Source: a virus
DNA length: 51,406 nucleotides
Reading direction: 5' to 3' (one strand)
IMG/VR virus record: IMGVR_UViG_3300049811_000206
Span: 1 to 51,406 of that record
Below the pieces are notes generated by a model. It was given only the letters and a program-made list of their open reading frames with translations. It searched no databases and had not been told where the DNA came from. Made by a program: the position numbers and the translations under genes. Every line of letters starts with the position of its first letter. Positions within the stretch are counted from its first letter, which is position 1. Below are positions 1,295-27,638 of the stretch, piece by piece.

Positions 1295-1406
1295 TTTCAG
1301 CCACTTGCCTAATTTGGCCTAAACATTTCGCACCGCCTGCCGACACCCAAGGCATGCGGTGCACCGCTATGTGGCAACCAAAACTTTCACGTGAAGGGAA
1401 CACACC

Positions 1407-2135: not shown

Positions 2136-2164
2136 TTTGAACCCCCTCGGGGAAAGGAAAAACC

Positions 2165-2416: not shown

Positions 2417-2444
2417 TGCCCTAAGTTTTGCTGTGACCTCCGTG

Positions 2445-2494
2445 CCCCCTTTGTGCTAGGCTTTCCGCAAGCAACACACAAAGGGGGTTTTCCT
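2445..2494 (+). terminator. Hairpin (11-bp stem) plus T-run; the 3' arm contains the SD of the next gene
   Basis: CCCCCTTTGTG (2445-2455) pairs with CACAAAGGGGG (2477-2487), followed by TTTTCCT and ATG 2495. It looks like an intrinsic terminator and would also occlude the AAGGGGG ribosome-binding site. Confidence 0.55.
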
Positions 2495-4622: not shown

Positions 4623-4626
4623 CACC

Positions 4627-5468: not shown

Positions 5469-5649
5469 TTTGCTTTTGAAGGCAGCCATTGCCATGGCCA
5501 TGAAACTTTTGACGGAAACCTTCATTGCCCGGGGGATCATTCGCGCCTCTCGCGCCTTGGCAGACAAAACCACCAACACCCTTGACGATGGCATGGTGGA
5601 CGATTTGGCCGAAGCCCTTAGCCAACCTGACTTGAAAAAGAAGGCGTGA
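5458..5649 (+). CDS. Small hydrophobic/amphipathic protein (lysis-cluster accessory, possible holin-like)
   Basis: AAGGGGGA RBS precedes ATG 5458. 63 aa: MWTDLLLKAAIAMAMKLL...TNTLDDGMVDD. Confidence 0.55.
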   Translation: MWTDLLLKAAIAMAMKLLTETFIARGIIRASRALADKTTNTLDDGMVDDLAEALSQPDLKKKA

Positions 5650-5655
5650 CCTGAC

Positions 5656-6669: not shown

Positions 6670-7076
6670 AGGGACAGGTTGCTTGCCGGTGTGGGTGCGG
6701 GGCGGCCAATGTCGCCCCTGGGTTTTTGGCGGCCATTGCCCGAATGGAAGAAATTCTTGGTTTCGAAGTGGTGGCCTTGTCCGTGTGCCGATGCGAAAAA
6801 CACAATCAAGCCGAAGGTGGGGAAGACAAAAGCCACCACCTGGCGACACCCGCGCATGACTGTTGTGCTGTGGACGTGGAAAGCCCTGATACTGACATGG
6901 ATACCAGGCTGAAGATTGCCAAGGCTGCCGAAGTGGCCGGGTTTCGAGGGTTCGGCTATGCCCGGACCTTTTTGCATATCGACATGGGGCGGAAAAGGTT
7001 TTGGTTCTATCCGGGGTTCTTGACCCGCCACCCTGCCCTATGCCCATGGAAAAACCCAGCGGAGACTACCCAATAG
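6666..7076 (+). CDS. Peptidase M15A-family (VanY / L-Ala-D-Glu peptidase-like) endolysin
   Basis: SVCRCEKHNQAEGGEDKSHHL...AVDV...FLHID matches the RC-x-x-HN-x-x-x-GG-x-x-x-S-x-H ... A-x-D ... H-x-D zinc-peptidase pattern of M15 cell-wall peptidases. Confidence 0.8.
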   Translation: MKGQVACRCGCGAANVAPGFLAAIARMEEILGFEVVALSVCRCEKHNQAEGGEDKSHHLATPAHDCCAVDVESPDTDMDTRLKIAKAAEVAGFRGFGYARTFLHIDMGRKRFWFYPGFLTRHPALCPWKNPAETTQ

Positions 7077-7398: not shown

Positions 7399-7766
7399 GA
7401 AGCTTGGCCCGTCAAATCTATCCCACATAAAACCCCCTTGCGATTGCGCTTTGCGACCCACGCCCCCAATTCAGCGACAATCAGACAAAAATTTTCAGGA
7501 TACACCACGGCAGCAAATCCCCCCGCCGTGGCTATTTGCCGAAGGTTATGCACTTGCAGCGTGTCAATTTTTGCTTTCGCGTCACGCTTTAATTCCAACG
7601 CCACAAACTGACCGCGAACGCACGCCAAAATGTCAGGCGTGCCACGCAAGCCCACTTGTTGCACCTTCACAGCCCACACCTGCGGCAGCGTGCGAAGCCA
7701 AGCTTGGACCTTTTGCTTGAAAACGGTTTCCGGCTTCACAGGCTTACCTTTTTCTTGTCTGCCCAT
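7395..7766 (-). CDS. VRR-NUC domain nuclease (PD-(D/E)xK)
   Basis: GTPDILACVRGQFVALELKR is the D...E-x-K motif of VRR-NUC proteins. GTG 7739 overlaps the polymerase stop (GTGA) and has AAAGG upstream, so it may be the real start. Confidence 0.8.
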   Translation of the reverse strand: MGRQEKGKPVKPETVFKQKVQAWLRTLPQVWAVKVQQVGLRGTPDILACVRGQFVALELKRDAKAKIDTLQVHNLRQIATAGGFAAVVYPENFCLIVAELGAWVAKRNRKGVLCGIDLTGQAS

Positions 7767-9565
7767 GACGTGGTGGACATGGCCGCGTCAACGTCCATGG
7801 GTAGGAATTTATGGGGGTAGGCTGCGCACATGATCCGTTTTAACTCGGGCAAAATGTCGGTTTCGCTTTCATGGATTTCCAGCAACAAACTGTCATGCAC
7901 TTGCAACAAAAGGCGCGATTTTTTGCGCGTGGAAACAAGGAAATCGTGCACGTTGTTCATGGCGAATTTGGCAATATCGGCCACCCCGCCTTGAATCAAC
8001 GTGTTGGGGGCCTTGTAGCAAAATTCGGGGTTATTGAAATAGTTCACTCGCCCCGCCCAATTCACGATATAGCCGCGATTTTCGGCCACGCTGGTGACGG
8101 CACGAATGAATTTGCTGACCTGTGGAAGGCGCTCAAAGTATTGGTCACGCAAAGCACGGGCTTTTCCCAGCGATATTTTCAAGGCGGTGGCGAGTTTCCC
8201 CGGGCCGCCCCCATACAACAGCATGAAATTGATTGTTTTGGCTTCCTGGCGTTCCACACCCATGGTTTTTCCCGTGGCCGTGTGAACGTCAAGCCCTTCA
8301 AGGATTTGATTGATTACAGACATTTCCCCCGCATAGTCCAGCATAAGCCTATATTCCGCCTGACTGTAATCTAATTCGGCCAGCTGAAACCCGGGGCGGG
8401 CAATGACGGCACGCTTGACGGGAAAAACTTCGTCCGCCGATTCTTCTTTCGGAACGTTTTGCATGTTTGGTTCCGACATGCTCATGCGTCCGGTTTCCGT
8501 CCCGCCTTGCCGAATGTTTGCATGAAGCACGCCGTTTTCGTCTGCATACTCCAAGAAATTGGCGTAATAGGTGAACGCCTTTTTGTGGGCCGCTCTAATT
8601 TGTTGAACCAATTTGGCCACAGGGGTGGAAAAGCCTTCTAGCACTTCGTCGGTGAAAGACGGATTTCCCTTTTCGGTCAGTGGGTATTTTTCCCCCATTT
8701 TCGTGAAGGCTTCTTTAAGCACCTTCGGCCCGTCCACAAATTCCAGCCCTGTGACTGCCTTGAATTCGTGCATGGCGTTGGCTTCCCGGCTTTCCTCATA
8801 AGCCTTGGCCCGTCTGCAATACTCAAGGTCAAGCTGTAATCCAACCTGTTCCATGGCAAAGCATGTTTTGATTAGCTTGCGCTCATTGGCGGCTAGGCCC
8901 GAGGGCCGGGGCACGTTGACCGGCACCATGGCGTCAAGTTTCTTCAATTCTTCCAGCTGTGAAATCCCCACCAGCCTGGTGATTTCCCCGTCTGTGCAAC
9001 CATAGGGGGCAATCACGTCCAAGGGCACCCGATCATAATGGGGCACCTTCTCTTTTTTCTTTTTGCCGGGGAAAAGCTTTGGGGTGAATAGCCCGTGCTC
9101 GGCAATGAAGTCTTCCACTGCCGTGCTTTTTTCCCGCCCAATTTGCTTCGAAAGGGCGTCAAGGCCATATTGAAACATGTCGTTTCGAACAATCCGCCCT
9201 TGGGTTTCGGTATCGTGGACGGTGCCAGCGATTGAAAGCCCTTCCCGGGCCAGCATGGCAAGGTCAAACTTGGCATTGGCCAAAAACCAATAGCTATCGG
9301 GGTTGCTGAAAATTTCTTGTAGCCGGGCCAACCACTCGCGCGGCAACCACCATTCTTCCGGCAGGTCATACCACTGGCCAGCCACGTATTCCTTGGGGTT
9401 GAAATTCAGATAGAAGCTCTCGGTTGCATCGGCAAGGATGACAGAAAAAAGCCTGTCACCCTGGTAGGGGCGCAGGCCAGTGGTTTCCGTGTCCGTGCCA
9501 TACATTCCCGCGTCTTTGAAGCGGGCAAGCACTTGGTCAAACTGATTTCTTTGGATTAGTGACAT
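7736..9565 (-). CDS. Family A DNA polymerase with 3'-5' exonuclease domain
   Basis: Exo motifs are DTETTGL, NAKFDL and YGCTDGE. Pol motif A is DYSQAEYRLM, motif B is RQEAKTINFMLLYG and motif C is LLLQVHDSLLLE. Confidence 0.95.
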   Translation of the reverse strand: MSLIQRNQFDQVLARFKDAGMYGTDTETTGLRPYQGDRLFSVILADATESFYLNFNPKEYVAGQWYDLPEEWWLPREWLARLQEIFSNPDSYWFLANAKFDLAMLAREGLSIAGTVHDTETQGRIVRNDMFQYGLDALSKQIGREKSTAVEDFIAEHGLFTPKLFPGKKKKEKVPHYDRVPLDVIAPYGCTDGEITRLVGISQLEELKKLDAMVPVNVPRPSGLAANERKLIKTCFAMEQVGLQLDLEYCRRAKAYEESREANAMHEFKAVTGLEFVDGPKVLKEAFTKMGEKYPLTEKGNPSFTDEVLEGFSTPVAKLVQQIRAAHKKAFTYYANFLEYADENGVLHANIRQGGTETGRMSMSEPNMQNVPKEESADEVFPVKRAVIARPGFQLAELDYSQAEYRLMLDYAGEMSVINQILEGLDVHTATGKTMGVERQEAKTINFMLLYGGGPGKLATALKISLGKARALRDQYFERLPQVSKFIRAVTSVAENRGYIVNWAGRVNYFNNPEFCYKAPNTLIQGGVADIAKFAMNNVHDFLVSTRKKSRLLLQVHDSLLLEIHESETDILPELKRIMCAAYPHKFLPMDVDAAMSTTSWADKKKVSL

Positions 9566-9722
9566 TTTTACCCATGGCTTCTGTCAGCAAAGTGTCCACA
9601 ACAAGGCTTTCCGTGCATCCGTGCTTTTTGGCTTGTTTCTTGACCCATGACTTCACGGTTGCCTTGACATACACGAAAAGCACGGTGTTACGCTTGGCCG
9701 CTGCTTTTTTCAACACGTCCAT
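9537..9722 (-). CDS. Small ribbon-helix-helix-like protein
   Basis: 61 aa with a strand VLFVYV followed by two helices (ATVKSWVKKQAKKHG, TESLVVDTLLTEAM), which is an Arc/CopG-like pattern. It overlaps both neighbours. Confidence 0.45.
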   Translation of the reverse strand: MDVLKKAAAKRNTVLFVYVKATVKSWVKKQAKKHGCTESLVVDTLLTEAMGKNVTNPKKSV

Positions 9723-14688: not shown

Positions 14689-14867
14689 TTGTCCACCTTT
14701 TCCGTGTACTCTTTGCATGCTTCAGCCAATGCGCTGAATATTTCTTGCCAATCGTTAGTAATACAGCGCAACCATTTGAAAATCACGTCATGCACTCCGT
14801 TTTGAATCACGCATAGTGTGTGCTTTTCACAGCTGTAGCACGAACGTGTTTTGCATACGCTATTCAT
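14685..14867 (-). CDS. Small Cys-rich hypothetical protein
   Basis: ATG 14867 overlaps the helicase TGA (ATGA). The protein begins MNSVCKTRSCYSCEKHTLC. Confidence 0.55.
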   Translation of the reverse strand: MNSVCKTRSCYSCEKHTLCVIQNGVHDVIFKWLRCITNDWQEIFSALAEACKEYTEKVDK

Positions 14868-17191
14868 ATAATGTTCCCCCACTTCAAAATGCTTTCGGCC
14901 ACGTTTGCTTTGCTTGTTAAGGCTTGCAGCACTTGGGCGTCAATCGTCCCCGGTGTCACAAGGTCAAGACGGGTTACCTTTTCGTGAATTGAACTTCCGC
15001 CACGGTAATTGCGGGCCTCGGCTTGCAGGTCATTTTCAAGCGAAAAATTACGGCTGAAAAAAATGCTGTAGCTGGAAGCCGTCAGGTTGACACCAACGCC
15101 CCCACTGGCCTGATTGGCGATCATGACCCGGCATTTGGGATCATTCTGAAACATGTCAATATTGGCTTGGCGTTCCTTGCCCGTGACTTCCCCGTGCAAT
15201 TGGGTGTAACCCAGCCCCAGCTTTTCACACACCTGGCGAATAACAGCATAATTTGCATGGAAAACGGCCCACACAATCACCTTGTGGTTGGGGGCAATAT
15301 CTTCCAGCAAGTCAGCAAGGGCCGCGATTCGTGGGCAATCGTCAAAAACCACTTCGGTGCCGTCTTCCGCCTTGAGGAATCCGCTGACGATTTGCTGTAA
15401 GCGCAACCCCTTGGTGATTGCCAGCTGTGCGGTGCACACCTTTGATTTTAGGAACGCCACGAAATCTTTTTTCATTTGTTCATAGGCGCGGGCTTGGTCA
15501 GGTGCCATTTCCACTTCAACCGTGTCACGCACCAGCGGGGGCAAATCCAAGCACTCGGATTTCACCACGCGCATGGCTTTGCGATACATTAGCCTACCCA
15601 ATTCGTCACTTGCCCCGGCACGTATGCGCCAATCAGGGAAATAACGTTGCGCGGGCATACCAGCGTTTTTGTCGAAAAAATACTTGGCGCGGAAGGAAAA
15701 GAAATTGTGCCCGAAGGTTTCCCCCTTGTCCAAAATCTTGAATTGCTGGAAGGCGTCCATGGGGCTGTTCAAGATAGGCGTTCCCGACAAAATCCACCGA
15801 TACCGCGTCAGGCTGGCCAGCTGAAAGCATGTTTTTGACCGCTTTGACTGCGGGCTTTTCATGCGTTGGCTTTCGTCAACGGCCATGGCCTCGGGCTGCC
15901 ACTTCTCGAAGGCTTCCACCATGGGCTTCATGGTCAAGGTTTCAAAATTGGTAATGAACACGGCGTTGGGATCGGCGGCAATGACTTTGTTGAACAGGTC
16001 AAGCCGCTTTTTGCCGCTACCCTTGAGCACAAAAACCCGGTCACTTATCTTTGAATTTTTCTGGAATTCACGTGCCCAGTTTTCGCATACCACCACTGGG
16101 CAAATAATTAGAGTGCGCAAAATTCTGGAATGCGCCAAGCATTTCCAGCGAAGCAAATCAATTGCCACCCTTGTCTTTCCCGAATTATGCACCACTAGAC
16201 CATTTGCAACAAAATTGTGGTGCGGTGCCTTACAGCAAATGTCATAGGTCATTTCCACGCCAACACGCTTGATTTCTGTCACGGTACGCCACGAAATAAC
16301 ACCATGCTTAAAATTCGCATATCCTTTGCTGTGCCCGCTTATATGTTCTTTAGCAGTAAGCAGCTGCAAGTTTTCCAGCGCATTATTTCGAGGATTTTTG
16401 TCAATGTGATGTACGTGAAATTTTTTGGGATCAATGTATTTTAGTTTGTTTGGTTTCTTTGTTTCTGCCTGAAACTGCGCCAGTGTAAGCCCATTCAAAT
16501 GGGCTTCAAAAATAGCGCGGTGCTTTTCCAATCTTTTGCAGCGTCGCCCATTGTACGGATGCGGAAATATCCGTGCATACTTGTGATGAATTCCCACTTG
16601 AATATCGGAATAGCGCGGTTTTTCTTTTTTTGCCCCGCTTCCAGTTTTCATGTGCCGGTGTAGGTAATCAAACGCAAGTTTTGTTTCTCCCACACGCAAG
16701 TCACGCAGTGGCTTGAATCCATCTTGGGTTAAGAATAGGTGGTCCGCTGTAGCTCGCAAAGGATTTCCATGATTCGTTGTGGATACGCTGAAAACTTCCT
16801 TTTCCCCGCTTCGCACAACCGCTTCAATTTCATTCAGACAAACATGGTCACCATTAAATGACCTGACATAGGTTTTAATTCCCGTATCCCATGCGTCACG
16901 TGTTCCCATTTCTACGTTGTTAAAATTTCGATATAGCTGTTCCAGCGTAATTTCAAACGCCTTTCCTGCACGATTCACCCTAATCAATGCGTCATGGGTA
17001 AGACACCCGGCTTCAAACAGTAAGGCATATTCTGGCATTTGCTTTGCTACTTCAAATGCTCGCCTCTGATGTTCCCACGGGGGGACTAGGAAGAAATTGG
17101 CAGGGGTATCGGTCACAGGTTTCCTTTCGGCCTCGGGCTTCAGATAGGGGCCGCGTTGCACTTGGTTTCCAAATCGAAATGGGCCACTCAT
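14864..17191 (-). CDS. SNF2-family (DEAD/H-like) helicase interrupted by an intein
   Basis: The exteins read ...LLFEAG + SGKTRVAIDL (Walker A GSGKT after splicing), then AVDESQ (box II), ILSGTP and C-terminal SNF2 motifs (QASGGVGVNLT, QAEARNYR). Residues 63-336 are the intein. Confidence 0.9.
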   Translation of the reverse strand: MSGPFRFGNQVQRGPYLKPEAERKPVTDTPANFFLVPPWEHQRRAFEVAKQMPEYALLFEAGCLTHDALIRVNRAGKAFEITLEQLYRNFNNVEMGTRDAWDTGIKTYVRSFNGDHVCLNEIEAVVRSGEKEVFSVSTTNHGNPLRATADHLFLTQDGFKPLRDLRVGETKLAFDYLHRHMKTGSGAKKEKPRYSDIQVGIHHKYARIFPHPYNGRRCKRLEKHRAIFEAHLNGLTLAQFQAETKKPNKLKYIDPKKFHVHHIDKNPRNNALENLQLLTAKEHISGHSKGYANFKHGVISWRTVTEIKRVGVEMTYDICCKAPHHNFVANGLVVHNSGKTRVAIDLLRWKCLAHSRILRTLIICPVVVCENWAREFQKNSKISDRVFVLKGSGKKRLDLFNKVIAADPNAVFITNFETLTMKPMVEAFEKWQPEAMAVDESQRMKSPQSKRSKTCFQLASLTRYRWILSGTPILNSPMDAFQQFKILDKGETFGHNFFSFRAKYFFDKNAGMPAQRYFPDWRIRAGASDELGRLMYRKAMRVVKSECLDLPPLVRDTVEVEMAPDQARAYEQMKKDFVAFLKSKVCTAQLAITKGLRLQQIVSGFLKAEDGTEVVFDDCPRIAALADLLEDIAPNHKVIVWAVFHANYAVIRQVCEKLGLGYTQLHGEVTGKERQANIDMFQNDPKCRVMIANQASGGVGVNLTASSYSIFFSRNFSLENDLQAEARNYRGGSSIHEKVTRLDLVTPGTIDAQVLQALTSKANVAESILKWGNII
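16184..17005 (-). mobile_element. Intein (274 aa) with an HNH homing-endonuclease domain, inserted in the helicase P-loop
   Basis: Block A is CLTHDALIRV (Cys1 codon at 17003-17005) and block B is ATADHLFLT. The HNH motif is FHVHHIDKNPRNNALENLQLLTAKEH. Block G is HNFVANGLVVHN followed by +1 Ser (Asn codon at 16184-16186). Confidence 0.85.
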
Positions 17192-18308: not shown

Positions 18309-18507
18309 TCAGCACGTCCATGTTCCAAGTGCTTAATTCTGCCGCCTTGACCTCGAAACGGTCAACGCACATATCAAATCGCCTTCGAAGCGCTTCTACA
18401 GGCACAACCTTGACGCCCTTGCGCTCGGTTGCCTGCAAAATACGGTCAAATTGCACAAGTGCGGCGCGGGCCGCGTCCCGTTCTTTCATGGCCTGTTCCA
18501 GTGTCAC
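18301..18507 (-). CDS. Hypothetical protein
   Basis: 68 aa. GTG 18507 overlaps the upstream TGA. An alternative ATG is at 18489. Confidence 0.55.
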   Translation of the reverse strand: MTLEQAMKERDAARAALVQFDRILQATERKGVKVVPVEALRRRFDMCVDRFEVKAAELSTWNMDVLNG

Positions 18508-18848
18508 GGTGTTCCCCCAATTCCGCCCACTTGGGCTTTTGTGTTGACCATTCGGGCCAAGTCTTTGTTGACTGCTTTGGTTTGCTGCAATTCCGAACGG
18601 CAGTTTGACAAGTCAAGCGTTCGCACGGTGTGCTTCAGCATTACGTCTTCAAACCCGTCTGCCATGGCCCCGGCAATTTCCTGACGCAGGGTTTGCCGCA
18701 GCTGGTAGCTTTCCCGCTGAAAGCCAAGCCACAAAATCCCCCAAGCACAAAGAATCAAGCCAACCCCAGCGGTGGCAGATAGGGCCACAAAGGGGACGAA
18801 ACTGACGCGCACATGCAAGTGCTTTCCCACCCTGGCGGCGCTGAACAT
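18504..18848 (-). CDS. Membrane protein, first gene of the minus-strand early/replication block
   Basis: ATG 18848 is preceded by GGAGGG, 7 nt upstream. The TM segment is FVPFVALSATAGVGLILCAWGILWL. The upstream ATG at 18878 lies inside the 17-bp palindrome and has no RBS. Confidence 0.6.
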   Translation of the reverse strand: MFSAARVGKHLHVRVSFVPFVALSATAGVGLILCAWGILWLGFQRESYQLRQTLRQEIAGAMADGFEDVMLKHTVRTLDLSNCRSELQQTKAVNKDLARMVNTKAQVGGIGGTP

Positions 18849-18864
18849 TCGGCTGCCCTCCGAA

Positions 18865-18881
18865 ATTTTGTTGAACATAAT
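18865..18881. promoter_or_regulatory. 17-bp palindromic element, copy 1 (ATTTTGTTGAACATAAT)
   Basis: It lies in the divergent intergenic region between 18848(-) and 19076(+), 16 nt upstream of ATG 18848. It is identical to copy 4. Confidence 0.65.
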
Positions 18882-19075
18882 GCAACCACAACGCCTAGCA
18901 CAAATGCAAGCAATCCGCAAACCCAAACCCCGGAAAAAGAAAAACACCCGAGGTAATTCAGAGGTTACCAGCCGCCCCTTGACAGCCCCCCACGCATGCG
19001 TGGCATCGTGGCAAACACTAGCGCCACCTATAGGTGAAAAAAATTTGCACACGTTCGTGCGTGGGGATTGCTGAA

Positions 19076-21505
19076 ATGCTTCAAATCCTGGGGATTCGTG
19101 ACTACACGACAGCCGAAGGCGAAGTGAAAAAGCGCGATGCGTTTTTTCAAAACAATTGGCGTGCGCCAAGTGTTGCCGATTTGTTCAAAAACCTTGACGC
19201 CCACCTTGCCAAAATTCCCGAGGATGCACGGTGGAATTTATACTACACGGCAGCCAATTGCGGGGACGGCAAGCGCGAATTCAAGGAACAACACGTTTTC
19301 GCTTTCGACATTGACGGCATTGACGTGAACCGCGCCCGCGACTATGTGTCAATCATTTGCGCCACGCTTGGCGTGAAGCCCGAGGAAACGGGCACCGTGA
19401 TGACCGGCCACGGGCTGCAATTGCTGATTGGCCTGAAAAACCCAATCACTCGCGCCGCCTGGTTTCGTGAGACAAAGCCCCACTATGTTTTGGTGTTGCG
19501 CAAAATCACGGAAGCCTTGAAAGCCCACGGGCTAAAGTGTGACGCTGACGCTTCGGTGTATGACCACAGGCGTCTTTTGCGTCTGCCCGGAACAATCAAT
19601 GATAAGTCATATAAAGGCTTGCCGCGCACGCGGGCCGAATTGCTTCAGGCCAATATCGTCCCCGTTGAATTCGACATTGGGGCCTTGGCAGGGGCACCAG
19701 CGGAAACGCCGGAACACACGGTGCCCGCCGATTTCATGAAGCGTTATCCAAAGGTGGACACCCCTGCCGTGCTCGCAGGGTGCGAATTTCTGAAATGGAC
19801 CAAAGACAACGCGGCCAAGGTCAATGAGCCGCAATGGTATGCAGCCCTTTCGGTTTTGTCGCGTTGCGAAAATGGCCCCGTTCTTTGTCATGACTACTCG
19901 AAAACCCACCCTGGTTATACCGCCCAAGAAACGCAGCTGAAGATTGACCAAGCCCTAAACGCCAGCGGGCCACGCACGTGCAAGGGCATTGGGACCATGT
20001 GGGACGGGTGCAAGGATTGCCCGAATTTCGGCAAGGTCACCAGCCCAATCATGCTTCGCGGCGCGGACTATATCCGCACGGAAAGCACGGGTTTCCGCCA
20101 CGTGACCTTTGGCGAAGGGGGCAAGGTCACCATTGGCAAGCCTTGTTTTGAAGACTTGCTGAAGGCTTTTGAGCGCAAGCACCGATTCGTCACCATGGCC
20201 GCCAGCCGGATTGTTTACACGTGGACCGGGACGCATTACCAAGTCACCCACCGAAACGAAATCGAAGCGTTCGCACAAGAACAGGTCAGCCCGTCGCCTA
20301 CTATGTCCAATCGAAAAGAATTTGCCGACCTTGTGACGTGCTCCAATATCGTTTCGCCGGATTGGTTTGCCGAAAGCACTTGGCGCAAAATGAATTTCCT
20401 TAACGGTTGGCTTGACCTGACCACAATGACTTTCAACCCCCCAAGTGACCGGCTGGGGTTTCGCCATGTTTTGCCCTACAATTATGAACCCACGGCCACG
20501 TGCCCCCATTACCTTTCCCTTATGAACAACGTCACGGGCGGGGACAGTCAGCTACAGTCAATTTTGAACGAATATGCTGGGTATGCCCTTTCCAATGACA
20601 AGATTTGGCTTCAAAAGGCTTTGGTGCTTTTGGGCGAAGGCTCAAACGGCAAATCAACGTGGCTGAACATTCTGAAGGCGCTTGTGGGCGAGGGTAACTA
20701 TTCCAGCCTTGGCTTGAAAGATTTTGAAAGCGAATACTGCCGCCAAATGCTGGACGGCAAGCTTTTCAACGTGGCCGAAGAAATGCCCCGCCAGCGGCTT
20801 GAAACAGCCAATTTCAAAGCGATCAGCACAGGCGGAACCGTCCAAGCCCGCAAGCCTTACCAAGAACCATATAGCTTCACGAACCGGGCCAAAATGCTAT
20901 TTGCCTGCAACACCCTGCCCGAAACTCAAGACACCAGCGGGGGGTTTTTCCGCCGTTTCCTGATTGTGCCGTTCAACCAAGAATTCAGCGAAGCACGCGG
21001 CAACCTTGACCCGTTCATTGAAGACAAGGTGCTTGAGGAATTGCCCGGTGTGCTCAACACCGTGCTTTCGGCCTACCGTGCCTTGATTCTGAAAAAGCGT
21101 TTCACGGAATCGGAATTGACGAAAGAAGCCCTTTCCAGCTACCAAGACGCCCAAGACACGGTGCTTTCCTGGTGGAATGAATACGTGAGCGTGAACACCA
21201 ACGGCGGAATGGAAACCCAGGCCAGCCGAATCGGTGACATGTATGATTCCTATGTGCGAATCACCAAGGCCAACGGCCAAGCCCCGGTGAACAACAAATG
21301 GTTTGGCCGCCAGCTTAGTTCATTGCTTCCAAACTATCGGCGTCATTACTCCGAAATGTGGGACAAGCAAATGCGCATGAAAATCAGAATCCTGAAAGGC
21401 GTGACTTTCGTGGATGCGGCAGCCCTTGCCTCGGGTGCGCGTCCGGCTTTCAAGCTGGAAGAATGCACGCCCCTGCCCGAAATGTCCCTTGCCATTCCCA
21501 TGTAA
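19076..21505 (+). CDS. Bifunctional AEP primase-polymerase / D5-P4-family SF3 helicase
   Basis: AEP motifs are FAFDIDGID, GHGLQLLIGL and LLRLPGTIN. The helicase has Walker A LLGEGSNGKST, and NRAKMLFACNTLPETQDTSGGFFRRFLIVPF is typical of the D5/P4 primase C-terminal domain. An in-frame GTG at 19034 is possible. Confidence 0.9.
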   Translation: MLQILGIRDYTTAEGEVKKRDAFFQNNWRAPSVADLFKNLDAHLAKIPEDARWNLYYTAANCGDGKREFKEQHVFAFDIDGIDVNRARDYVSIICATLGVKPEETGTVMTGHGLQLLIGLKNPITRAAWFRETKPHYVLVLRKITEALKAHGLKCDADASVYDHRRLLRLPGTINDKSYKGLPRTRAELLQANIVPVEFDIGALAGAPAETPEHTVPADFMKRYPKVDTPAVLAGCEFLKWTKDNAAKVNEPQWYAALSVLSRCENGPVLCHDYSKTHPGYTAQETQLKIDQALNASGPRTCKGIGTMWDGCKDCPNFGKVTSPIMLRGADYIRTESTGFRHVTFGEGGKVTIGKPCFEDLLKAFERKHRFVTMAASRIVYTWTGTHYQVTHRNEIEAFAQEQVSPSPTMSNRKEFADLVTCSNIVSPDWFAESTWRKMNFLNGWLDLTTMTFNPPSDRLGFRHVLPYNYEPTATCPHYLSLMNNVTGGDSQLQSILNEYAGYALSNDKIWLQKALVLLGEGSNGKSTWLNILKALVGEGNYSSLGLKDFESEYCRQMLDGKLFNVAEEMPRQRLETANFKAISTGGTVQARKPYQEPYSFTNRAKMLFACNTLPETQDTSGGFFRRFLIVPFNQEFSEARGNLDPFIEDKVLEELPGVLNTVLSAYRALILKKRFTESELTKEALSSYQDAQDTVLSWWNEYVSVNTNGGMETQASRIGDMYDSYVRITKANGQAPVNNKWFGRQLSSLLPNYRRHYSEMWDKQMRMKIRILKGVTFVDAAALASGARPAFKLEECTPLPEMSLAIPM

Positions 21506-21644: not shown

Positions 21645-21926
21645 CTATTCAGCGGGGCACGCTTCTGACCACGGGCATGGCAAATGCGTATAATTCAGCG
21701 CGTAATCTGTTTTGATGGCAAGCCACGCGGCAAATTCCATGTCCTCGCGCGTCTTCCCTACGTGCTGCAAAATTTCGTCATGGACCAAGGAACGCAGCCG
21801 GTGGGCATTCATATAGGGAACATGGTCCCCGGCAAAGGCAAGGCCCCGTGTTTCGTCAATCACCTTGGTCAGGCCGATATATTCGCGCAACAGGTGTTTC
21901 GGGACATGTTTGGTGAAATCCTTCAT
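21645..21926 (-). CDS. Hypothetical protein
   Basis: 93-aa ORF followed by a terminator. Confidence 0.6.
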   Translation of the reverse strand: MKDFTKHVPKHLLREYIGLTKVIDETRGLAFAGDHVPYMNAHRLRSLVHDEILQHVGKTREDMEFAAWLAIKTDYALNYTHLPCPWSEACPAE

Positions 21927-21953
21927 GGTGTGCCCCCTTCGCGTTTTATGTGG

Positions 21954-22778
21954 TTACTCGGCAGTATTCAGCAATTCGGCGGTGATTGGGTACTGAAAAC
22001 CAAGGGCGGGGCTTTCCGTGTAGTCAAAAAGCCCGGTGGTTGACCCGCTGGTGTTCGTGCAATTGGCCCCCATGCGGCGCGATTGGTAGTTAAAGGTTGC
22101 CGGTTGTGCGCGGCCCGTGGCCTGAATAATGTGGCCGTTGTCCGATATTTCGAACATGTTAGCCCACACGCCGTTGACAATCCCCACCTTGCACGTGCCT
22201 GCACAGGCTGGAAGGCTGCAAAACATATAGGCATTCGGGAAGTGACCGGCCACGCGGGAAAACTGCATGCGCCTGTCCCCACTGGCAACGAAGTAATCAG
22301 AGTTTGCGGGGTTGACCCAAACAAGGCTTCCAATTTCAGCCCCCAAGGCGTCCAAAACGCGGAAGGTGGGGAAACCTTCGCCCGGGGTTCCAGCGGCCCC
22401 GGCAGCCCCGTTTTGCCCGTCCTGGCCGTCAACCCCTGACTGCCCCACCAACCCGTTACACACAACCGTCACTTGGCGGTTTATGTCCTCGCCTTCGGTG
22501 AAAACGGGCTTGCCTTGGGCGTCTGTTTCTTGGGCCACGTCTGTCCACGTGGTGAACGCCTGGCCACCAGCGGGGCAGGTTTCACCCATGGGGACCGGGG
22601 CCGATTGGATGACTGCCGGGGCACCGGCTTGGCCCACGGTTGTGGTTTCAATGGTTTGGGTTTCCACCTTGGCCTTGGCTTCCGGTTGGTTCATGAGCGC
22701 TTGGGCGTCAGTGGCTTGGGGTTGCTGGCCGCAGGCTACAAGCGTGGTCAATGTAAGGATAGCCGTGAAAGTCTTCAT
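21954..22778 (-). CDS. Lipoprotein with a short collagen-like Gly-X-Y tract
   Basis: The signal plus lipobox is MKTFTAILTLTTLVAC. The G-X-Y run is GLVGQSGVDGQDGQNGAAGAAGTPGEG. The C-terminal domain is Cys-containing. Confidence 0.75.
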   Translation of the reverse strand: MKTFTAILTLTTLVACGQQPQATDAQALMNQPEAKAKVETQTIETTTVGQAGAPAVIQSAPVPMGETCPAGGQAFTTWTDVAQETDAQGKPVFTEGEDINRQVTVVCNGLVGQSGVDGQDGQNGAAGAAGTPGEGFPTFRVLDALGAEIGSLVWVNPANSDYFVASGDRRMQFSRVAGHFPNAYMFCSLPACAGTCKVGIVNGVWANMFEISDNGHIIQATGRAQPATFNYQSRRMGANCTNTSGSTTGLFDYTESPALGFQYPITAELLNTAE

Positions 22779-22837
22779 AAGGTGCCCCCTTGTGTAAGGT
22801 TTCCTCTATTGGCCCCCTTTGGTTCGGGGGCCGGGGG

Positions 22838-23065
22838 CTAGTTCTTTTCCACTCGGAAGTCACGCCCGTTGTCAAAGGCGGTGATTTTGTCAAAGGGAAT
22901 CCATTCGTCATTCAGCGTGTTCACGCCCTTGTCTTTGTGGACGCTGCGGCAGCGCACGCGGCCAAATGCGCCTTCACAATACAGGGTGTAAAAGTCATGG
23001 GCTTGGCGGCCATTCCAGTGGATCAATTCAAGCGCCATGTGGTCAGTTTTCAGTGTAGCCTTCAT
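22838..23065 (-). CDS. Hypothetical protein
   Basis: ATG 23065 is preceded by GAAGGGGG. The ORF track start at 23101 is less well supported. Confidence 0.55.
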   Translation of the reverse strand: MKATLKTDHMALELIHWNGRQAHDFYTLYCEGAFGRVRCRSVHKDKGVNTLNDEWIPFDKITAFDNGRDFRVEKN

Positions 23066-23130
23066 GCGTGCCCCCTTCGTTTGAATCGCGTTTGGGACCA
23101 TCCCGCCCGCCTTATAAATATCCTTTCGGT

Positions 23131-23147
23131 ATTTTGTTGAACAAAAT
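23131..23147. promoter_or_regulatory. 17-bp palindromic element, copy 2 (perfect: ATTTTGTTGAACAAAAT)
   Basis: Perfect 8+1+8 palindrome, upstream of the 23065(-) gene. Confidence 0.65.
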
Positions 23148-23153
23148 GAGTAG

Positions 23154-23180
23154 CACCTAAAACACTAATAGTTTTAGGTG
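23154..23180. other. 10-bp-stem hairpin between palindrome copies 2 and 3
   Basis: CACCTAAAAC (23154-23163) pairs with GTTTTAGGTG (23171-23180), with a 7-nt loop. It may terminate the 24848-to-23307 operon. Confidence 0.5.
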
Positions 23181-23195
23181 GGTGCGCTTGTAATT

Positions 23196-23212
23196 ATTTT
23201 GTTGAACAGAAT
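23196..23212. promoter_or_regulatory. 17-bp palindromic element, copy 3 (ATTTTGTTGAACAGAAT)
   Basis: One mismatch to the perfect palindrome; 65 bp centre-to-centre from copy 2. Confidence 0.6.
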
Positions 23213-23306
23213 TCAGCGGGAAGCACTTGCCAATCCCTTAGCCCGATATTCCACCAGCGCACCTTCATTTTGACTTGCTGGGTTTCCGCAACAAAGAAGC
23301 GCTTCC

Positions 23307-23558
23307 TTACTTCAATGGCCACGCCCGTGTTGTTTCGGTGCTTGTAGAGCATGGGGGCTTCCTATCAGGGGCGCGGCCCACGGGCCTAGGCGGCAGGACA
23401 TACCAACCCGAATGCCCGATGCCTACCCCTATCCTATAGACCACGCGGCATGACCGGCAGGTGCGTTGAAAGACACCTAGGGACCGTGGCGCGTGCATGC
23501 GGAAACCACACCTGGGGCAGGGGAACGGCAAGCTTTGCTTGGCTCTAAATAGCGTCAT
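23307..23558 (-). CDS. Putative zinc-ribbon protein
   Basis: CPRCG...CRSC. ATG 23558 overlaps the upstream stop (ATGA). Confidence 0.5.
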   Translation of the reverse strand: MTLFRAKQSLPFPCPRCGFRMHAPRSLGVFQRTCRSCRVVYRIGVGIGHSGWYVLPPRPVGRAPDRKPPCSTSTETTRAWPLK

Positions 23559-23923
23559 TCGTCCAAGTTACTCCAATTGGGAAGCACTTCCTTGACCTTC
23601 AAAATAAGCTTTGTGGCTTCCACCTGCCATTGCTCACAACGGCGCTCAAGACGAGCCAATTCTTCGGCCATGTATTCATTTTGTTCCACGAGCCGTTCCA
23701 GCATACGCCTATTTTCACGTGGCCATTTTTCCCTACGGAACGCAGCCCGAAGCACGTTTCTTTGCACTCGCCATTTCTCAGCCTTAATGTTGGTAACGGA
23801 ATCAGGGATAGTAGCAAGGCGCGTATCGTCCGAATATAATTCATACCTGCAATTCGATGCGGAATGGCGCCAATGTGCTGTGGCAACCATGATTGCAGCA
23901 AATGGATTTATTTTGGTTGGCAT
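23555..23923 (-). CDS. Hypothetical protein with C-terminal coiled coil
   Basis: 122-aa ORF. Confidence 0.6.
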   Translation of the reverse strand: MPTKINPFAAIMVATAHWRHSASNCRYELYSDDTRLATIPDSVTNIKAEKWRVQRNVLRAAFRREKWPRENRRMLERLVEQNEYMAEELARLERRCEQWQVEATKLILKVKEVLPNWSNLDE

Positions 23924-23937
23924 ACCTAAACCTCATT

Positions 23938-24234
23938 TTATGGGCGTTGTTCTAAGCTTTTTTCCCATTCAGGAATAAACGCAAAGTGCGTGCTACCTGT
24001 GGCATACACCCACCCCGCACTTGAAAGCGTTGGCTCGTCTTCGCACCACACCCACCTACCAAATGAATCACGAACCAAAAACCTAGCCCACACCGGGGCG
24101 CTTTCCCACGCTGGTTTTTGCATGAGGGGTGCGGCGTCTTCCCATCGGCACCAATCACCAAAAGCATGTGGGCGCATTTCAATCCATTGTTCATTTGGAA
24201 GAAACTGAGCATACATTTTAAAACGCGCAATCAT
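23938..24234 (-). CDS. Hypothetical Trp-rich protein
   Basis: ATG 24234 overlaps the upstream TGA (ATGA). The ORF track start is 24255. Confidence 0.55.
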   Translation of the reverse strand: MIARFKMYAQFLPNEQWIEMRPHAFGDWCRWEDAAPLMQKPAWESAPVWARFLVRDSFGRWVWCEDEPTLSSAGWVYATGSTHFAFIPEWEKSLEQRP

Positions 24235-24443
24235 GCTTCGGGTTCCAATTCCCATGCCCGCAGGCGGTCACCAGCGGTGATTTCCCGAATGATTTTTTGG
24301 CGCAGGTCAATGGAGCGCTGCACGGCACTTTCACCCTTGGCGTTTGGCACGTGGTTTGAATCACTTTGGGCCAGCACTGCCGTGCGCAATGCCAGGGCGT
24401 TTTGGATTGCCACCAAGTCTTCACGGGATAGGTTTACTTGCAT
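24231..24443 (-). CDS. Hypothetical protein
   Basis: ATG 24443 is preceded by AGGGGGA. The ORF track start at 24458 is TTG. Confidence 0.55.
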   Translation of the reverse strand: MQVNLSREDLVAIQNALALRTAVLAQSDSNHVPNAKGESAVQRSIDLRQKIIREITAGDRLRAWELEPEA

Positions 24444-24451
24444 ACGTCCCC

Positions 24452-24664
24452 CTAGCAATCAAACACGAAATGCCTGTGCGTCTTGGGATTGTCAGCGCAG
24501 GCAACAGGTGCGCATTCTTCCCGCGTGGAAAGTGACCAACCGTTTTCCGTGCCACACGGGCGCATGCTGTTCACCTTGGCAACAAAGGCGGGCAATTCCT
24601 CGTCTGTGGCGTCCGAACACACCCACAACCCAAGCATTTGTTCCCCCAGGATTTCAATTTGCAT
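24452..24664 (-). CDS. Hypothetical protein
   Basis: ATG 24664 is preceded by GGGAAGGAAA. The ORF track start at 24682 is GTG. Confidence 0.55.
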   Translation of the reverse strand: MQIEILGEQMLGLWVCSDATDEELPAFVAKVNSMRPCGTENGWSLSTREECAPVACADNPKTHRHFVFDC

Positions 24665-24848
24665 TTCGTTTTTCCTTCCCACTCAAAAAGGATTTCAGCA
24701 TTTTCAATGCGTCCCACGCATTCACAGCGCAAAACATGACGATTAGCCCCAGCGCAAGGCTTCCCCACAGGAAAGACCACACAAGCCAAACAAGCCGCGC
24801 AATGCTCAAGTCAGTACACACAAGCGCCCCCGATATTTTGTTGAACAT
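24654..24848 (-). CDS. Small membrane protein, first gene of a minus-strand operon
   Basis: The TM segment is LVWLVWSFLWGSLALGLIVMFCAV. GTG 24821 follows GGGGG and is probably the true start. ATG 24848 lies inside palindrome copy 4. Confidence 0.5.
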   Translation of the reverse strand: MFNKISGALVCTDLSIARLVWLVWSFLWGSLALGLIVMFCAVNAWDALKMLKSFLSGKEKRNAN

Positions 24849-24851
24849 AAT
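24835..24851. promoter_or_regulatory. 17-bp palindromic element, copy 4 (ATTTTGTTGAACATAAT)
   Basis: Identical to copy 1. It lies 13 nt upstream of GTG 24821 on the minus strand. A TTGACA hexamer sits about 33 nt further upstream on that strand. Confidence 0.65.
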
Positions 24852-25027
24852 TCACGCCACGCTAAAGCATATTTGCCTAGAAGGTGTCAACCAAATTTTT
24901 GTAGTCAGTGTGGCGCTTGGATTCGAGGGGCAAAATATAGTCCGCCCCATGACTATAATATAGCCCGCTGGGACTATAGCCGGGGCGGGGTGTTTCAGGA
25001 ATGAACATGGTTGGAAAGTGGAACAGG

Positions 25028-25481
25028 GGGCCGGGGTTGGGTGCTACCCAATTTCAGCCCTGGCATTTAACTGCGCACCAGCGCCCCCAGCCCCTACCAA
25101 GGGAAACCAAAGCCTAACGTTTGTCGGGGCGGGAACACAATCCAATAATAGACAAAAAAAGAAGCTATTAATGGATAGTGGGCCGGGGTTCGAAGGATAC
25201 CAGCGGGGGGAAGTTTTGGGCTGGAATTTGGACGATTTTGGGGCCGGGGATCGGGGGAAAAACCAGCGCTGGGGGAAACACGGGGTTTTCTAAGTGCTTG
25301 ATTTGTAAGGAATGGCGTGTTTTGTGGCGTCGATTTTGGGTTTGAAAGGTAAGGGAAACCAGTGGGTTGAGCGAAAAAAGCTAACGTCGGTGTGCATTTT
25401 TTGTGCATGACTGGTATTAGTTAGCTGTTAAGGGGAATAAACGAACAAAATGGGCTTGGTAGCAAGGAAATTGGGCCGGGG
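25028..25481. repeat. Four dispersed copies of GGGCCGGGG in the non-coding hub
   Basis: Copies are at 25028-25036, 25180-25188, 25241-25249 and 25473-25481, all in the same orientation. Each is followed by (T/A)(T/C). Confidence 0.7.
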
Positions 25482-25513
25482 ACAAGGCCATTTTGTAACC
25501 CGTTGATTTTGTT

Positions 25514-25849
25514 CATTCCATCATTCCATGAACTTCCATCATTTTTTTGCTTCATGGAATGGAACTAACCAGCCGTTTTTTGGCTCTTTTTCGGGTTTTC
25601 CTTCCATCATTCCATGAAAGAGGGGGTATAGGTAACATTTTGAAACGCTGGTTTTTAGAGCGTGGTCCCACTGTATAAATATTGAACAACAACCACGATA
25701 AAATGCACCCTAAAACTACCCCTTATAGAGAATACATGGAATGTCGGAAGATGGCCCTTTTTGGAGGTTGTTTTGGTAATGATATTCGACACCTTCCAAC
25801 ATTCCATCATTTTGAGTTTTCATGGAAGGTTCTTGGAAGTTTCATGGAA
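25514..25849. repeat. Iteron-like array of TTCCAT(C/G)A in both orientations
   Basis: Exact plus-orientation copies start at 25516, 25524, 25534, 25602, 25610 and 25802. Exact inverted copies (TCATGGAA) start at 25552, 25820 and 25842. One-mismatch copies lie near 25557, 25734, 25794 and 25831. Confidence 0.8.
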
Positions 25850-25858
25850 GCACTTGCA

Positions 25859-25875
25859 TTTTTGTTGAACGTAAT
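25859..25875. promoter_or_regulatory. 17-bp palindromic element, copy 5 (TTTTTGTTGAACGTAAT)
   Basis: It lies 26 nt upstream of ATG 25902, the first gene of the plus-strand late block. TTGCAT sits immediately upstream. Confidence 0.55.
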
Positions 25876-25901
25876 GTTAGCTACTTTCGAGGGGGAAAAA
25901 T

Positions 25902-26219
25902 ATGAAACCGGAAACAATCGCCTTGCTGGCGGAATTCGAAAAATTCGTGTCCGCCGATCCGCGCCTTAAAGCGCTGTGGGCTGCCCTGCCCCAAGAAGCT
26001 GGGATAGCCCTGGGGAAAGCTGTGGAATACATGCCCCAGCTGAAACCGTCTTATTTCCATCAATGGTATTGCAAGCACGAATCCGACCGCTCGGGGCTTA
26101 CCCAGCGCCAAAGCTATCAGCTGTTTCAGCTGGGCTTGATGTTCCTTGACCAAGTGAGCCGGGGACGCTATTACGTGCCGCCGTTCGTGGCCGAAGGGGC
26201 TGCCAATGGGCAAGGATGA
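25902..26219 (+). CDS. Hypothetical protein
   Basis: GAGGGGGAAAAAT lies immediately upstream of ATG 25902. 105 aa. Confidence 0.65.
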   Translation: MKPETIALLAEFEKFVSADPRLKALWAALPQEAGIALGKAVEYMPQLKPSYFHQWYCKHESDRSGLTQRQSYQLFQLGLMFLDQVSRGRYYVPPFVAEGAANGQG

Positions 26220-26403
26220 TAAGCGGCCCGGAAGGAAACCCCTAAACCCTGGTGACCCCCTGGTGCACAAGGGGTTTCGTTTGCCGCGCACCTTGGTGCT
26301 TAGGCTTTCCAAGATGGCCTTGGACCACAAGCGTTCCGAAAGCGAATTTCTTAGGGAATTGCTTGAGGAAACCTTGAACAGGATTGAATCCAATGAAGGT
26401 TGA
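26206..26403 (+). CDS. Ribbon-helix-helix (CopG/MetJ-like) DNA-binding protein
   Basis: GAAGGGG RBS. GFRLPRTLVLRLSKMALDHKRSESEFLRELLEETL has a strand-helix-helix pattern. Confidence 0.65.
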   Translation: MGKDDKRPGRKPLNPGDPLVHKGFRLPRTLVLRLSKMALDHKRSESEFLRELLEETLNRIESNEG

Positions 26404-26620
26404 CGCGGTGAACATTGTGGTGGCGCTTGAGGATATGAAGGCGCACGCCCGAAAGCTTACATTCGCAGCCGCGCGGGCGATTTCCAAAGGTGAACACGGC
26501 GCTGCCGAATTCTTGGAACATGAAGCCAACGGGGTGGATTGGTGCATGCGGCGCTTGCGCCTCGCCATGGCAAAACCCCCCGCTGGGAAAGGTGCCCCAT
26601 GCCCGACAAATCGGAAATAA
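26393..26620 (+). CDS. Hypothetical protein
   Basis: ATG 26393 overlaps the end of the RHH gene. The ORF track start is 26384. Confidence 0.5.
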   Translation: MKVDAVNIVVALEDMKAHARKLTFAAARAISKGEHGAAEFLEHEANGVDWCMRRLRLAMAKPPAGKGAPCPTNRK

Positions 26621-26769
26621 ACAAAACGTGCCTCACCACATACGCCACACTTGTGGCGGTTGGGATCATGCTATTGATAGGCAGGTGCGGCGTAAGCCCC
26701 TGGTGGTTGCTTTCCATTCCGTTTTTCGTGTCGCACTTGGCCTTGGTTCTTGGTCGTTTTCGTGATTGA
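26599..26769 (+). CDS. Small two-TM membrane protein
   Basis: GGGAAAGG RBS precedes ATG 26599. TM segments are TTYATLVAVGIMLLIG and WWLLSIPFFVSHLALVLG. Confidence 0.5.
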   Translation: MPDKSEINKTCLTTYATLVAVGIMLLIGRCGVSPWWLLSIPFFVSHLALVLGRFRD

Positions 26770-26770
26770 T

Positions 26771-26968
26771 TTGGGCACATGTGCCCAAGTTATTTTCCCA
26801 ATGCAATCGGCATATTGTAATTTTCGCCTTGGAAGTTTGGGCACATTTTGGTCTAGTTTGGGCACAAATTGGGCACAAATTTCGGTGCTTTTTTCGTGGA
26901 AACGTTGACGGATTCCTACAAGGGTGCGATATTAAAGATATAACAAACGTTGGGCACACTTGGGCACA
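26771..26968. repeat. Array of seven TTGGGCACA boxes directly upstream of terS
   Basis: A perfect 18-bp palindrome TTGGGCACATGTGCCCAA lies at 26771-26788. Direct copies are at 26837, 26858, 26869, 26950 and 26960. The last copy ends 4 nt before ATG 26973. Confidence 0.85.
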
Positions 26969-26972
26969 TAAA

Positions 26973-27638
26973 ATGGAAAGTCAAGGAAATCAAGAGCTTA
27001 CAGTAAGGGGACAAAAGAAGTGGGATAAGCTGCGCGAAGAATGGCTTGCCAGCAATATGGACCCTTACGAATTCATGCGTGCCAAAAATATCAACATTAG
27101 GTTGGGCGGCGTTCGTCGCGTATTGGCCGAATGGATGAGTGTGTGCCCGGAAGACAAAAAGCCCCGGTTGCATCGTCCGGCCATGACGTGCTTCTACGAT
27201 CAGGTAATGGATTCCATAAAGAAGGAACAGGAAGGGAAGTTACCCAGCACGGCAGACTTGTGGAATTTATATCTTAGGTGGCGTCAGCAACAAAGTGGGC
27301 AGGATTACACCACAGCCGACAAGATTAGGATGCACCTGCACATTCTACTTGAAAAAGGTTTGACGGACGAAGGCACAAGCTACACCCCTACCGAATTGGC
27401 ACGCCTGGCGAACGTGGCGGAATCCATTCAAAGGATTCAACGCCTGGCGCTCGGCTTGACCACTGAAAACGTTGGAATGGAAACGCCACAAACCCACGTT
27501 GAAAAGGACGTTACCCCCGAGGAAAGCCCCCAAGCACAGGAAGCACGCATGCCGGTGTTCGTGGTGGAAATGTCGCGCGGCGGCAAGTTTGTCCGCTCAC
27601 GCCCGACCATGCAGCTGGCCCAAGCGGTAAGTGGTTAG
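26973..27638 (+). CDS. terS: Putative terminase small subunit
   Basis: It lies immediately upstream of terL. 221 aa with a helical N-terminus (KKWDKLREEWLASNMDPYEFMRAKNI) and an acidic/flexible C-terminus. The upstream part of the 26766 ORF is occupied by the repeat array and is unlikely to be coding. Confidence 0.55.
   Translation: MESQGNQELTVRGQKKWDKLREEWLASNMDPYEFMRAKNINIRLGGVRRVLAEWMSVCPEDKKPRLHRPAMTCFYDQVMDSIKKEQEGKLPSTADLWNLYLRWRQQQSGQDYTTADKIRMHLHILLEKGLTDEGTSYTPTELARLANVAESIQRIQRLALGLTTENVGMETPQTHVEKDVTPEESPQAQEARMPVFVVEMSRGGKFVRSRPTMQLAQAVSG

Follow-up and report, generated by a model that had tools for sequence, protein, structure and literature searches.

An iteron array around an AT-rich core points to a probable replication origin in the gene-free hub of a 51-kb tailed phage

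The region at positions 24852-25901 of the IMG/VR virus record IMGVR_UViG_3300049811_000206, hereafter the hub, was analysed within the whole 51,406-nt stretch of that record, which we call the window. The source is a 51-kb tailed phage and, because the first and last 117 bases are identical (1-117 = 51290-51406), the window is probably a complete genome of ~51,289 bp (~51.3 kb); the identical ends are either a terminal repeat or a circular-assembly overlap. The hub separates two divergent sets of genes. To its left, small leftward genes (21645-24848, - strand) stand between it and a primase-helicase gene (19034-21505, + strand), which follows a - strand block at 7.4-18.5 kb that encodes a family-A DNA polymerase (7736-9565), an exonuclease, a Pam3-gp34-like protein and an SNF2 helicase with an intein. 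To its right, gp105 (25902-26219, +) is the first rightward gene, followed by the genes for an RHH protein (26206-26403, +), a 221-aa protein with no family assignment (26973-27638, +), TerL, the portal and structural proteins, in a series that runs to the window end and continues at 36-7076 (+). An earlier note on this DNA had put the hub forward as a candidate replication origin and/or main regulatory switch, and had mentioned a structured non-coding RNA (ncRNA) as a further possibility. Here we describe the anatomy of the hub, compare it with related loci and propose that its right part is most likely an origin of replication.

The absence of a convincing coding sequence from 24852-25901, claimed in that note, was borne out by a hexamer coding score, by Pfam and PHROG and by protein searches. 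Using a hexamer measure trained on the long open reading frames (ORFs) of the same genome, the flanking genes score 0.3-0.9 and the hub ORFs of at least 40 aa score at or below 0, the sole exception being a 43-aa ORF at 24877-25008 (-). This ORF overlaps a DNA block conserved in L161, one of the related loci described below, where the frame carries an in-frame stop, so the region is not conserved as protein. Neither Pfam nor PHROG gave a match for any hub ORF, and a concatenated query of the three largest found no homologue among 5.8 billion proteins. The left limit of the non-coding stretch depends on the reality of the leftward ORF 24654-24848, since its ATG lies inside the palindrome that forms the left hub edge; its coding score is only 0.085. 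The hub makes up 2.0% of the ~51,289 bp, as had been estimated, and each of the elements reported there before (the two bounding palindromes, four copies of GGGCCGGGG, the TTCCATSA repeats and an AT-rich patch at about 25672) was recovered in its place and exceeds chance. The two repeat families diverge in their fate: TTCCATSA is swapped for other words in relatives, and GGGCCGGGG is kept together with the palindrome.

The right 40% of the hub (~25516-25849) is occupied by the 8-nt iteron TTCCATSA. Exact copies number 17 in the genome against 4.2 expected, and nine of the 17 fall within the 334 bp of 25516-25849, where ~0.1 would be expected by chance. With one mismatch allowed, 12 of the 146 genome-wide matches lie inside 361 bp, in agreement with the nine or more copies counted previously. 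Cluster I (25516-25559) has copies at 25516+, 25524+, 25534+ and 25552-, cluster II (25602-25617, +) is the tandem doublet TTCCATCATTCCATGA, and cluster III (25794-25849) has copies at 25794+ (1 mismatch), 25802+, 25820-, 25831- (1 mismatch) and 25842-, which converge on one another. Both orientations are represented, and an AT-rich unique core (25618-25793, ~175 bp) separates clusters I and II, on its left, from cluster III on its right. The core, a putative DNA-unwinding element, contains TGTATAAATATTGAACAACAAC, which begins at 25672 and corresponds to the AT-rich patch noticed before, CCCCTTATAGAG and a degenerate iteron at 25734 (-); the least stable 200-bp duplex window of the genome begins at 25674, between the iteron clusters. 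The hallmarks of the origin class considered here include at least six clustered copies of one short word in gene-free DNA, and repeats in opposing directions on either side of a meltable AT-rich centre; both were found. Judging from the sequence, this segment is most likely a replication origin, and the origin module is the right part of the hub only, ~350 bp.

A third hallmark of this class is an SF3 helicase with a C-terminal winged helix encoded in the same genome. The primase-helicase has Pfam and PHROG matches to AEP primase, D5_N and SF3 domains, and its only PDB match by sequence is PriRep5 of SaPI5 (PDB 7OLA; E 7e-18). An AlphaFold2 (AF2) model, with a predicted local distance difference test (pLDDT) score of 89.5, shows AEP primase, D5_N and SF3 ATPase domains and, at ~aa 716-785, a C-terminal winged helix, modelled as a helix-strand-helix-helix-hairpin unit with pLDDT ~90. 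Foldseek matched this model to African swine fever virus (ASFV) PrimPol, to poxvirus E5/D5, including E5 of monkeypox virus (MPXV), and to SaPI5 PriRep5 (7OLA), the latter through chains built with their C-terminal domain, at a TMt of 0.70-0.75 and across 400-426 columns. The AF2 model and the Foldseek matches thus place the helicase with its winged helix in this genome. A search with the protein retrieved 345 homologues at E <= 1e-20, many of them on 45-55-kb contigs; 'P4 family phage/plasmid primase-like' is the JGI annotation given to homologues. In a comparison of 52 homologues, conservation was lowest in the winged helix, with a mean identity of 25% compared with 43-50% in the other domains, a divergence that is as expected of a specificity determinant.

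To compare the module among relatives, the DNA of eight primase-helicase homologues was fetched. The primase-helicases of six of them (L164, L166, L167, L168, L169 and L170) are 43-48% identical to the window protein, and all six loci display iterons in both orientations, tandem doublets included, around an AT-rich core; the L164 module was also seen in L165. In these six relatives the module lies in the first gene-free stretch after the primase gene, 0-700 bp 3' of its stop codon. The array starts no more than ~20 nt past the stop in L166, L167 and L170, and a 67-aa gene in L164, an HNH gene in L168 and ~400 bp in L169 lie between primase and array. Each relative has its own 7-9-nt word (GGTTCCAGSAAT, TAGACAGGT, GGTTACAG, CCTGTTCA, GGGACAGC and GGTTAACY; that of L164 is also written GGTTCCAG), and the reverse-complement words are visibly akin, as in SATGGAA of the window, SCTGGAAC of L164 and CTGTAAC of L167. 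An array of binding sites in which the word changes under an unchanged layout is the mark of a specificity determinant. The words TATAYA, ACACAC and CCCC..CTATAG are common to the core of the window and those of L164 and L166-L170. Seven relative loci of 3-22 kb (these six and L161) were tested for duplex stability: at five, the module contains the least stable 100-bp window of the entire locus, and at the other two the module is within the top 1-4% for duplex instability. Two further observations concern these loci: the HNH endonuclease gene of L168 (10200-10583) stands between primase and iterons inside the equivalent hub, and in L164 five AACTTGnC-type repeats with an 11-bp period (9554-9616) directly follow the primase stop; the module of GTTCCAG iterons is distinct from them and begins 400 bp beyond. 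A phage RNA polymerase was considered as the reason for the CTATAG-like core words and rejected, since the large genes of the window include none.

For the right-flank gene gp105 three relatives of 55-70% identity were found, two of them with DNA (L160 and L161, the closest to this gene). The DNA of both aligns with the window module, cores included. The repeat of L161 is TTGACCA/TGGTCATCA, with nine TGACCA cores in both orientations, and differs from TTCCATSA; L160 has TTGTCC plus TGACCA. The L161 hub, ~1.6 kb long, keeps the element order of the window: left-edge palindromes, block A, an inverted repeat of the ATTAATGGAT type, GGGCCGG words, the repeat field and a palindrome ~40 nt ahead of the gp105 homologue, the repeat field surrounding a conserved core TATACACCACTACAC...CCCCTATAGG. 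L169 and L170 likewise have a gene-free hub, 1.0 kb and 0.65 kb long respectively, between the primase gene and homologues of the gp105, RHH, TerL and portal genes. Because these two loci have the hub followed by the same series of homologues, we take the right flank of the window to be the ancestral arrangement; the leftward gene block between primase and hub is peculiar to the lineage of the window and L162. The check on conservation suggested in the earlier note therefore shows a hub that is group-wide and not peculiar to this genome. Scans with TerL found no relatives closer than 52-57% identity in IMG/VR and JGI metagenomes and none in GTDB genomes, the primase scan of IMG/VR found no relative, exact-pattern IMG/VR scans for the iteron doublet and the palindrome gave single chance matches only, and neither block A nor a conserved codon pattern of gp105 gave any match when scanned for. 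Distant-mode BLASTN of 24000-27000 gave no DNA relatives among GenBank phages.

The hub origin most likely belongs to an already known kind, that of P4 and the SaPIs, as judged by analogy. The P4 ori/crr and the alpha primase-helicase were reportedly worked out by Ziegelin, Lanka, Calendar and co-workers in the 1990s. P4 alpha, a primase-helicase with several functions, recognises octamer iterons (TGTTCACC, repeated in both orientations) by means of a C-terminal winged helix. The phage described here resembles P4 in having a primase-helicase with a C-terminal winged helix and octamer iterons in both orientations, and the L168 array contains TGTTCACC itself. P4 requires two separated iteron regions, ori and crr, whereas one iteron cluster is present here, and its alpha primase domain is of another type than the AEP domain modelled in our protein. 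With lambda ori the module shares repeated initiator sites beside an easily melted AT-rich segment and a specificity that co-evolves with the initiator; in contrast, lambda ori lies inside the initiator gene, has ~19-bp sites in one orientation and needs the loader P and host DnaB, whereas here the helicase is phage-encoded and presumably self-loading. In SaPIs, the Reps recognise 5-6-nt iterons through a C-terminal winged helix, and the origin consists of 6-12 iterons immediately downstream of rep, split by an AT-rich region, with at least two iterons per side in opposite directions (PMC9371898). The likeness extends to the fused AEP primase and SF3 helicase with C-terminal winged helix, to lineage-specific short iterons that flank an AT-rich centre in both orientations and, in this phage's relatives, to a module directly 3' of the helicase gene. 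The window module fits the SaPI description, by this comparison, except in its distance from the primase gene: the origin here would be ~4 kb away, inside a hub of divergent promoters. Other differences are that the iterons are 8 nt long instead of 5-6 nt, that identity to PriRep5 is 17-18%, and that the element belongs to a 51-kb tailed phage, equipped with a polymerase and structural genes of its own, and not to a satellite.

Following P4 alpha and the SaPI Rep/PriRep proteins, the winged helix of the primase-helicase (19034-21505) would bind the TTCCATSA iterons, and the protein would load itself as a hexamer at each side of the core and then open it. The AEP domain would prime and hand over to the family-A DNA polymerase (7736-9565), with bidirectional replication as the outcome. 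Which protein binds which site, and that replication starts at the hub, we infer from the sequence. Cumulative GC skew, which had been suggested as a check, has its minimum at 24877 and its maximum at 50681, half a genome apart. Since the minimum coincides with the gene strand switch, the genes were grouped by strand and by side of the genome for comparison: the 12 + genes of the left half, the primase gene among them, have lower coding-strand skew than genes directed away from the hub (+ genes on the right and - genes on the left; p ~0.04), at all codon positions as well as at third positions. The skew fits, weakly, forks leaving the hub both ways, and differences between early and late genes could also explain it. 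The proposal that the hub holds an origin thus gains support from the iterons at a meltable core, the modules of the relatives, the PriRep-like protein and the GC skew.

Several observations weigh against this assignment. In the window, ~4 kb and seven or eight leftward genes separate the module from the primase gene, and for this reason the adjacency argument rests on the relatives; the window primase gene is followed only by terminator hairpins. The module always lies upstream of late or packaging genes, so position alone leaves room for a transcriptional or packaging role. The pairs of winged helix and iteron all differ from one another, and no contig links a close primase relative to its hub. 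The test that separates GC skew from the strand switch with which its minimum coincides is marginal (p ~0.04). A sigma-70 promoter scan displayed no excess over shuffles in the hub and in L161, and public reads yielded only DNA scraps in two metagenomes (one a 151-nt contig with 1 mismatch) and no RNA runs.

The hub is bounded by copies of a 17-bp palindrome, ATTTTGTTGAACATAAT, with the core TTTGTTNAACAAA. With up to three mismatches it has five sites in the window (18865, 23131, 23196, 24835 and 25859), whereas shuffles average 0.16. Copy 4 (24835-24851, ATTTTGTTGAACATAAT) is the left hub edge and holds the ATG of the leftward ORF 24654-24848; copy 5 (25859-25875, TTTTTGTTGAACGTAAT, 2 mismatches) is the right edge, 27 nt upstream of the gp105 start codon, so both bounds described in the earlier note are present. 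All five sites are intergenic or at gene starts: 18865 precedes the primase gene, 23131 and 23196 lie in the early operon and the remaining two are the hub edges. Counterparts stand at equivalent places in L160-L163 and in the distant L170; that of copy 5 keeps its position in L160, L161 and L170, and the L161 palindromes at 1116 and 1178, at the left hub edge, are homologous to copy 4. No copy was found in L164 and L166-L169. A dyad-symmetric site is thus repeated near the heads of several transcription units, as is typical of operators, and because the palindrome marks such starts and recurs in relatives it is probably an operator or promoter element. The bounding copies would head the divergent leftward (early) and rightward (gp105-RHH-terminase-structural) operons, and the same element precedes the primase gene and an internal early unit. 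A main regulatory switch in the hub, as suggested earlier, is to this extent plausible, and the support for it is indirect, coming from palindromes at transcription-unit heads here and in relatives.

The palindrome is too AT-rich, with too short a loop, for a terminator; the RHH protein was dismissed as its binder, as the RHH beta-strands of L169 and L170 are nearly the same (VIIGFRG) and only L170 has the palindrome; and gp105 was dismissed as a DNA-binding candidate, its confident, all-helical AF2 model (pLDDT 87) having no structural neighbour at E below 3. The exact copies at 18865-18881 and 24835-24851 each contain the ATG of a - strand ORF, and both ORFs (18504-18878, ~124 aa; 24654-24848, 64 aa) begin with MFNKIS and have a hydrophobic segment. 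They may be (near-)leaderless, or the palindrome itself may have given rise to the N-terminus they share. At 23131-23212, in an intergenic gap of the early operon, two copies with a spacing of 65 bp stand on either side of a perfect 10-bp hairpin, CACCTAAAAC / GTTTTAGGTG (23156-23182); the two palindromes at the left hub edge of L161 are 62 bp apart.

The left 60% of the hub (24852-25500) has two blocks conserved with L161. Block A (24868-24917, GGTGTCAACCAAATTTTTGTAGTCAGTGT...) is 80% identical over 50 nt to L161 1211-1260 and carries TTGACA on the - strand at 24890-24885; it may be a leftward promoter or a binding site. This TTGACA, a word too common in the genome to be informative, has no consensus -10 element after it. 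The second is an inverted repeat at 25136-25178, CACAATCCAATAATAG / CTATTAATGGATAGTG round an A-rich loop, a candidate protein-binding site whose ATTAATGGAT words are kept in L161 1340-1385 as a 14-bp palindrome and a direct copy. GGGCCGG-type words also occur in the L161 hub. The word GGGCCGGGG occurs seven times in the genome, where 1.5 occurrences would be expected, and always on the + strand. The four hub copies reported earlier were found at 25028, 25180, 25241 and 25473 (25028-25481, +), together with a G-run-rich tract at 25099-25500. The others are at 5299, 8903 and 22828, and the word also occurs in non-coding DNA of L161 and L162; its strand bias could be that of a Chi-like, protein or RNA motif. 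The tract 25099-25500 is the genome's top G4Hunter region (1.30 over 100 nt vs 0.90 for the next best, 0.69 vs 0.38 over 400 nt) and has a GC skew of +0.27. We propose that the left part is a spacer that would carry a leftward control region (block A and the ATTAATGGAT inverted repeat), presumably with a leftward promoter, and the G-run tract. Its derivation from a decayed copy of the extra ORF of the L161 hub was rejected, as no TBLASTN/TBLASTX similarity was found; that ORF (L161 1580-1953, -) has 124 aa and no family match. Taken together, the sequence makes it likely that the hub is composite, with an origin on the right, palindromes acting as operator or promoter elements and a control-region spacer on the left.

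The most serious alternative gives the repeats a purely regulatory role: TTCCATSA would mark operator or activator sites of a lineage-specific transcription factor governing the early/late switch and the core would be a promoter, much as in lambdoid immunity regions, whose operators differ. We consider this unlikely. It would account for a module that always stands between early genes and the late operon, for a cluster III that stops 10 bp short of the palindrome and ~50 bp short of the first late gene, for an RHH protein encoded two genes downstream and for TATA-like words common to the cores. However, the repeats of L166, L167 and L170 start within ~20 nt of the primase stop and the late genes that follow vary among relatives, while 10-12 short sites in both orientations round the least stable DNA are the known origin pattern of this helicase family (PMC9371898). 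The RHH beta-strand is identical in the window and L160/L161 despite their different repeats, gp105 lacks a recognisable DNA-binding fold, and the region has no excess of sigma-70-like promoters. That the repeats are instead a packaging site (pac or cos), bound, as are the R sites of lambda cosB, by the small subunit of terminase, seems very improbable. Lineage-specific short repeats in both orientations would suit terminase recognition and the hub is 1.9 kb upstream of TerL, but in relatives the distance to TerL ranges over ~0.9-3.8 kb with up to 11 genes between, compared with 0-700 bp to the primase stop; moreover, the identical 117-bp assembly ends lie elsewhere, at window position 1, and an array of TTGGGCACA x7 at 26770-26972, nearer the terminase genes, is a better pac candidate.

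The remaining alternatives concern the left 650 bp (24852-25500), which might encode one or more ncRNAs, for example a G-rich regulatory or primer RNA ending at the hairpin 25571-25595. This stretch is gene-free yet partly conserved with L161, and nowhere in the genome is the G-run asymmetry stronger; on the + strand, terminator-like hairpins with a T-run after them occur at 25313-25342 and 25571-25595, one of them at the aligned place in L161, and the hairpin at 25136-25178 lies within a - strand fold of z = -2.9. We nevertheless regard such RNAs as quite unlikely, given that the whole window has no Rfam match at gathering thresholds (with E up to 5 allowed, the hub gives only two chance-level matches, at E ~1), that sliding fold z-scores lie mostly between -2.5 and +2 and that terminator-like sites are no commoner than in shuffles; alignable sequences number two only, too few for covariation. 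The structured ncRNA entertained in the earlier note thus finds no support in Rfam or in the unremarkable fold z-scores. A related and distinctly doubtful idea is that the G-rich left half is transcribed toward the iterons, giving an R-loop or G-quadruplex at the origin edge or a small regulatory RNA like the P4 CI RNA. If true, a G-rich RNA would couple origin firing or immunity to transcription and would add an RNA layer to an origin class described in SaPI as needing Rep/PriRep alone to bind and melt.

Other features of the window were recorded alongside the hub. The TTGGGCACA x7 array at 26770-26972 is a second gene-free array, which includes TTGGGCACATGTGCCCAA, a perfect palindrome of 18 bp. 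The 221-aa gene (26973-27638) starts directly downstream of the array; homologues of this gene come after the origin module in L168 and stand first in the rightward operon of L001. The array could be a pac site or the control region of a late promoter. The SNF2-family helicase gene (14864-17191, -) holds an intein with an HNH endonuclease (Pfam Intein_splicing, HNH_3); the SNF2 genes of relatives are ~480 aa long and have no intein, and the insert matches a low-GC stretch at 16-17 kb. Ribosome-binding sites are genome-wide of a G-run type (AAGGGGG, GAAAGG) and not AGGAGG, and a near copy of the gp105 ribosome-binding region (TTCGAGGGGCAAAATATAG) is found at 24922-24940, in the left part of the hub. 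No tRNAs were found in the window.

The assignment of the origin to the right part of the hub, which draws on sequence, structure prediction and comparative anatomy, would be useful for annotation and unsurprising to a specialist, as this kind of system is not new. It places a likely origin for an uncultured group of 45-55-kb phages and offers a rule for finding it in relatives, namely iteron doublets in both orientations round the least stable DNA just after the primase-helicase gene. The segment 25480-25880 together with the gene 19034-21505 is a candidate minimal replicon. Eight lineages with eight iterons and a hypervariable winged helix form a natural series in which the evolution of origin specificity in self-loading SF3 helicases may be followed.

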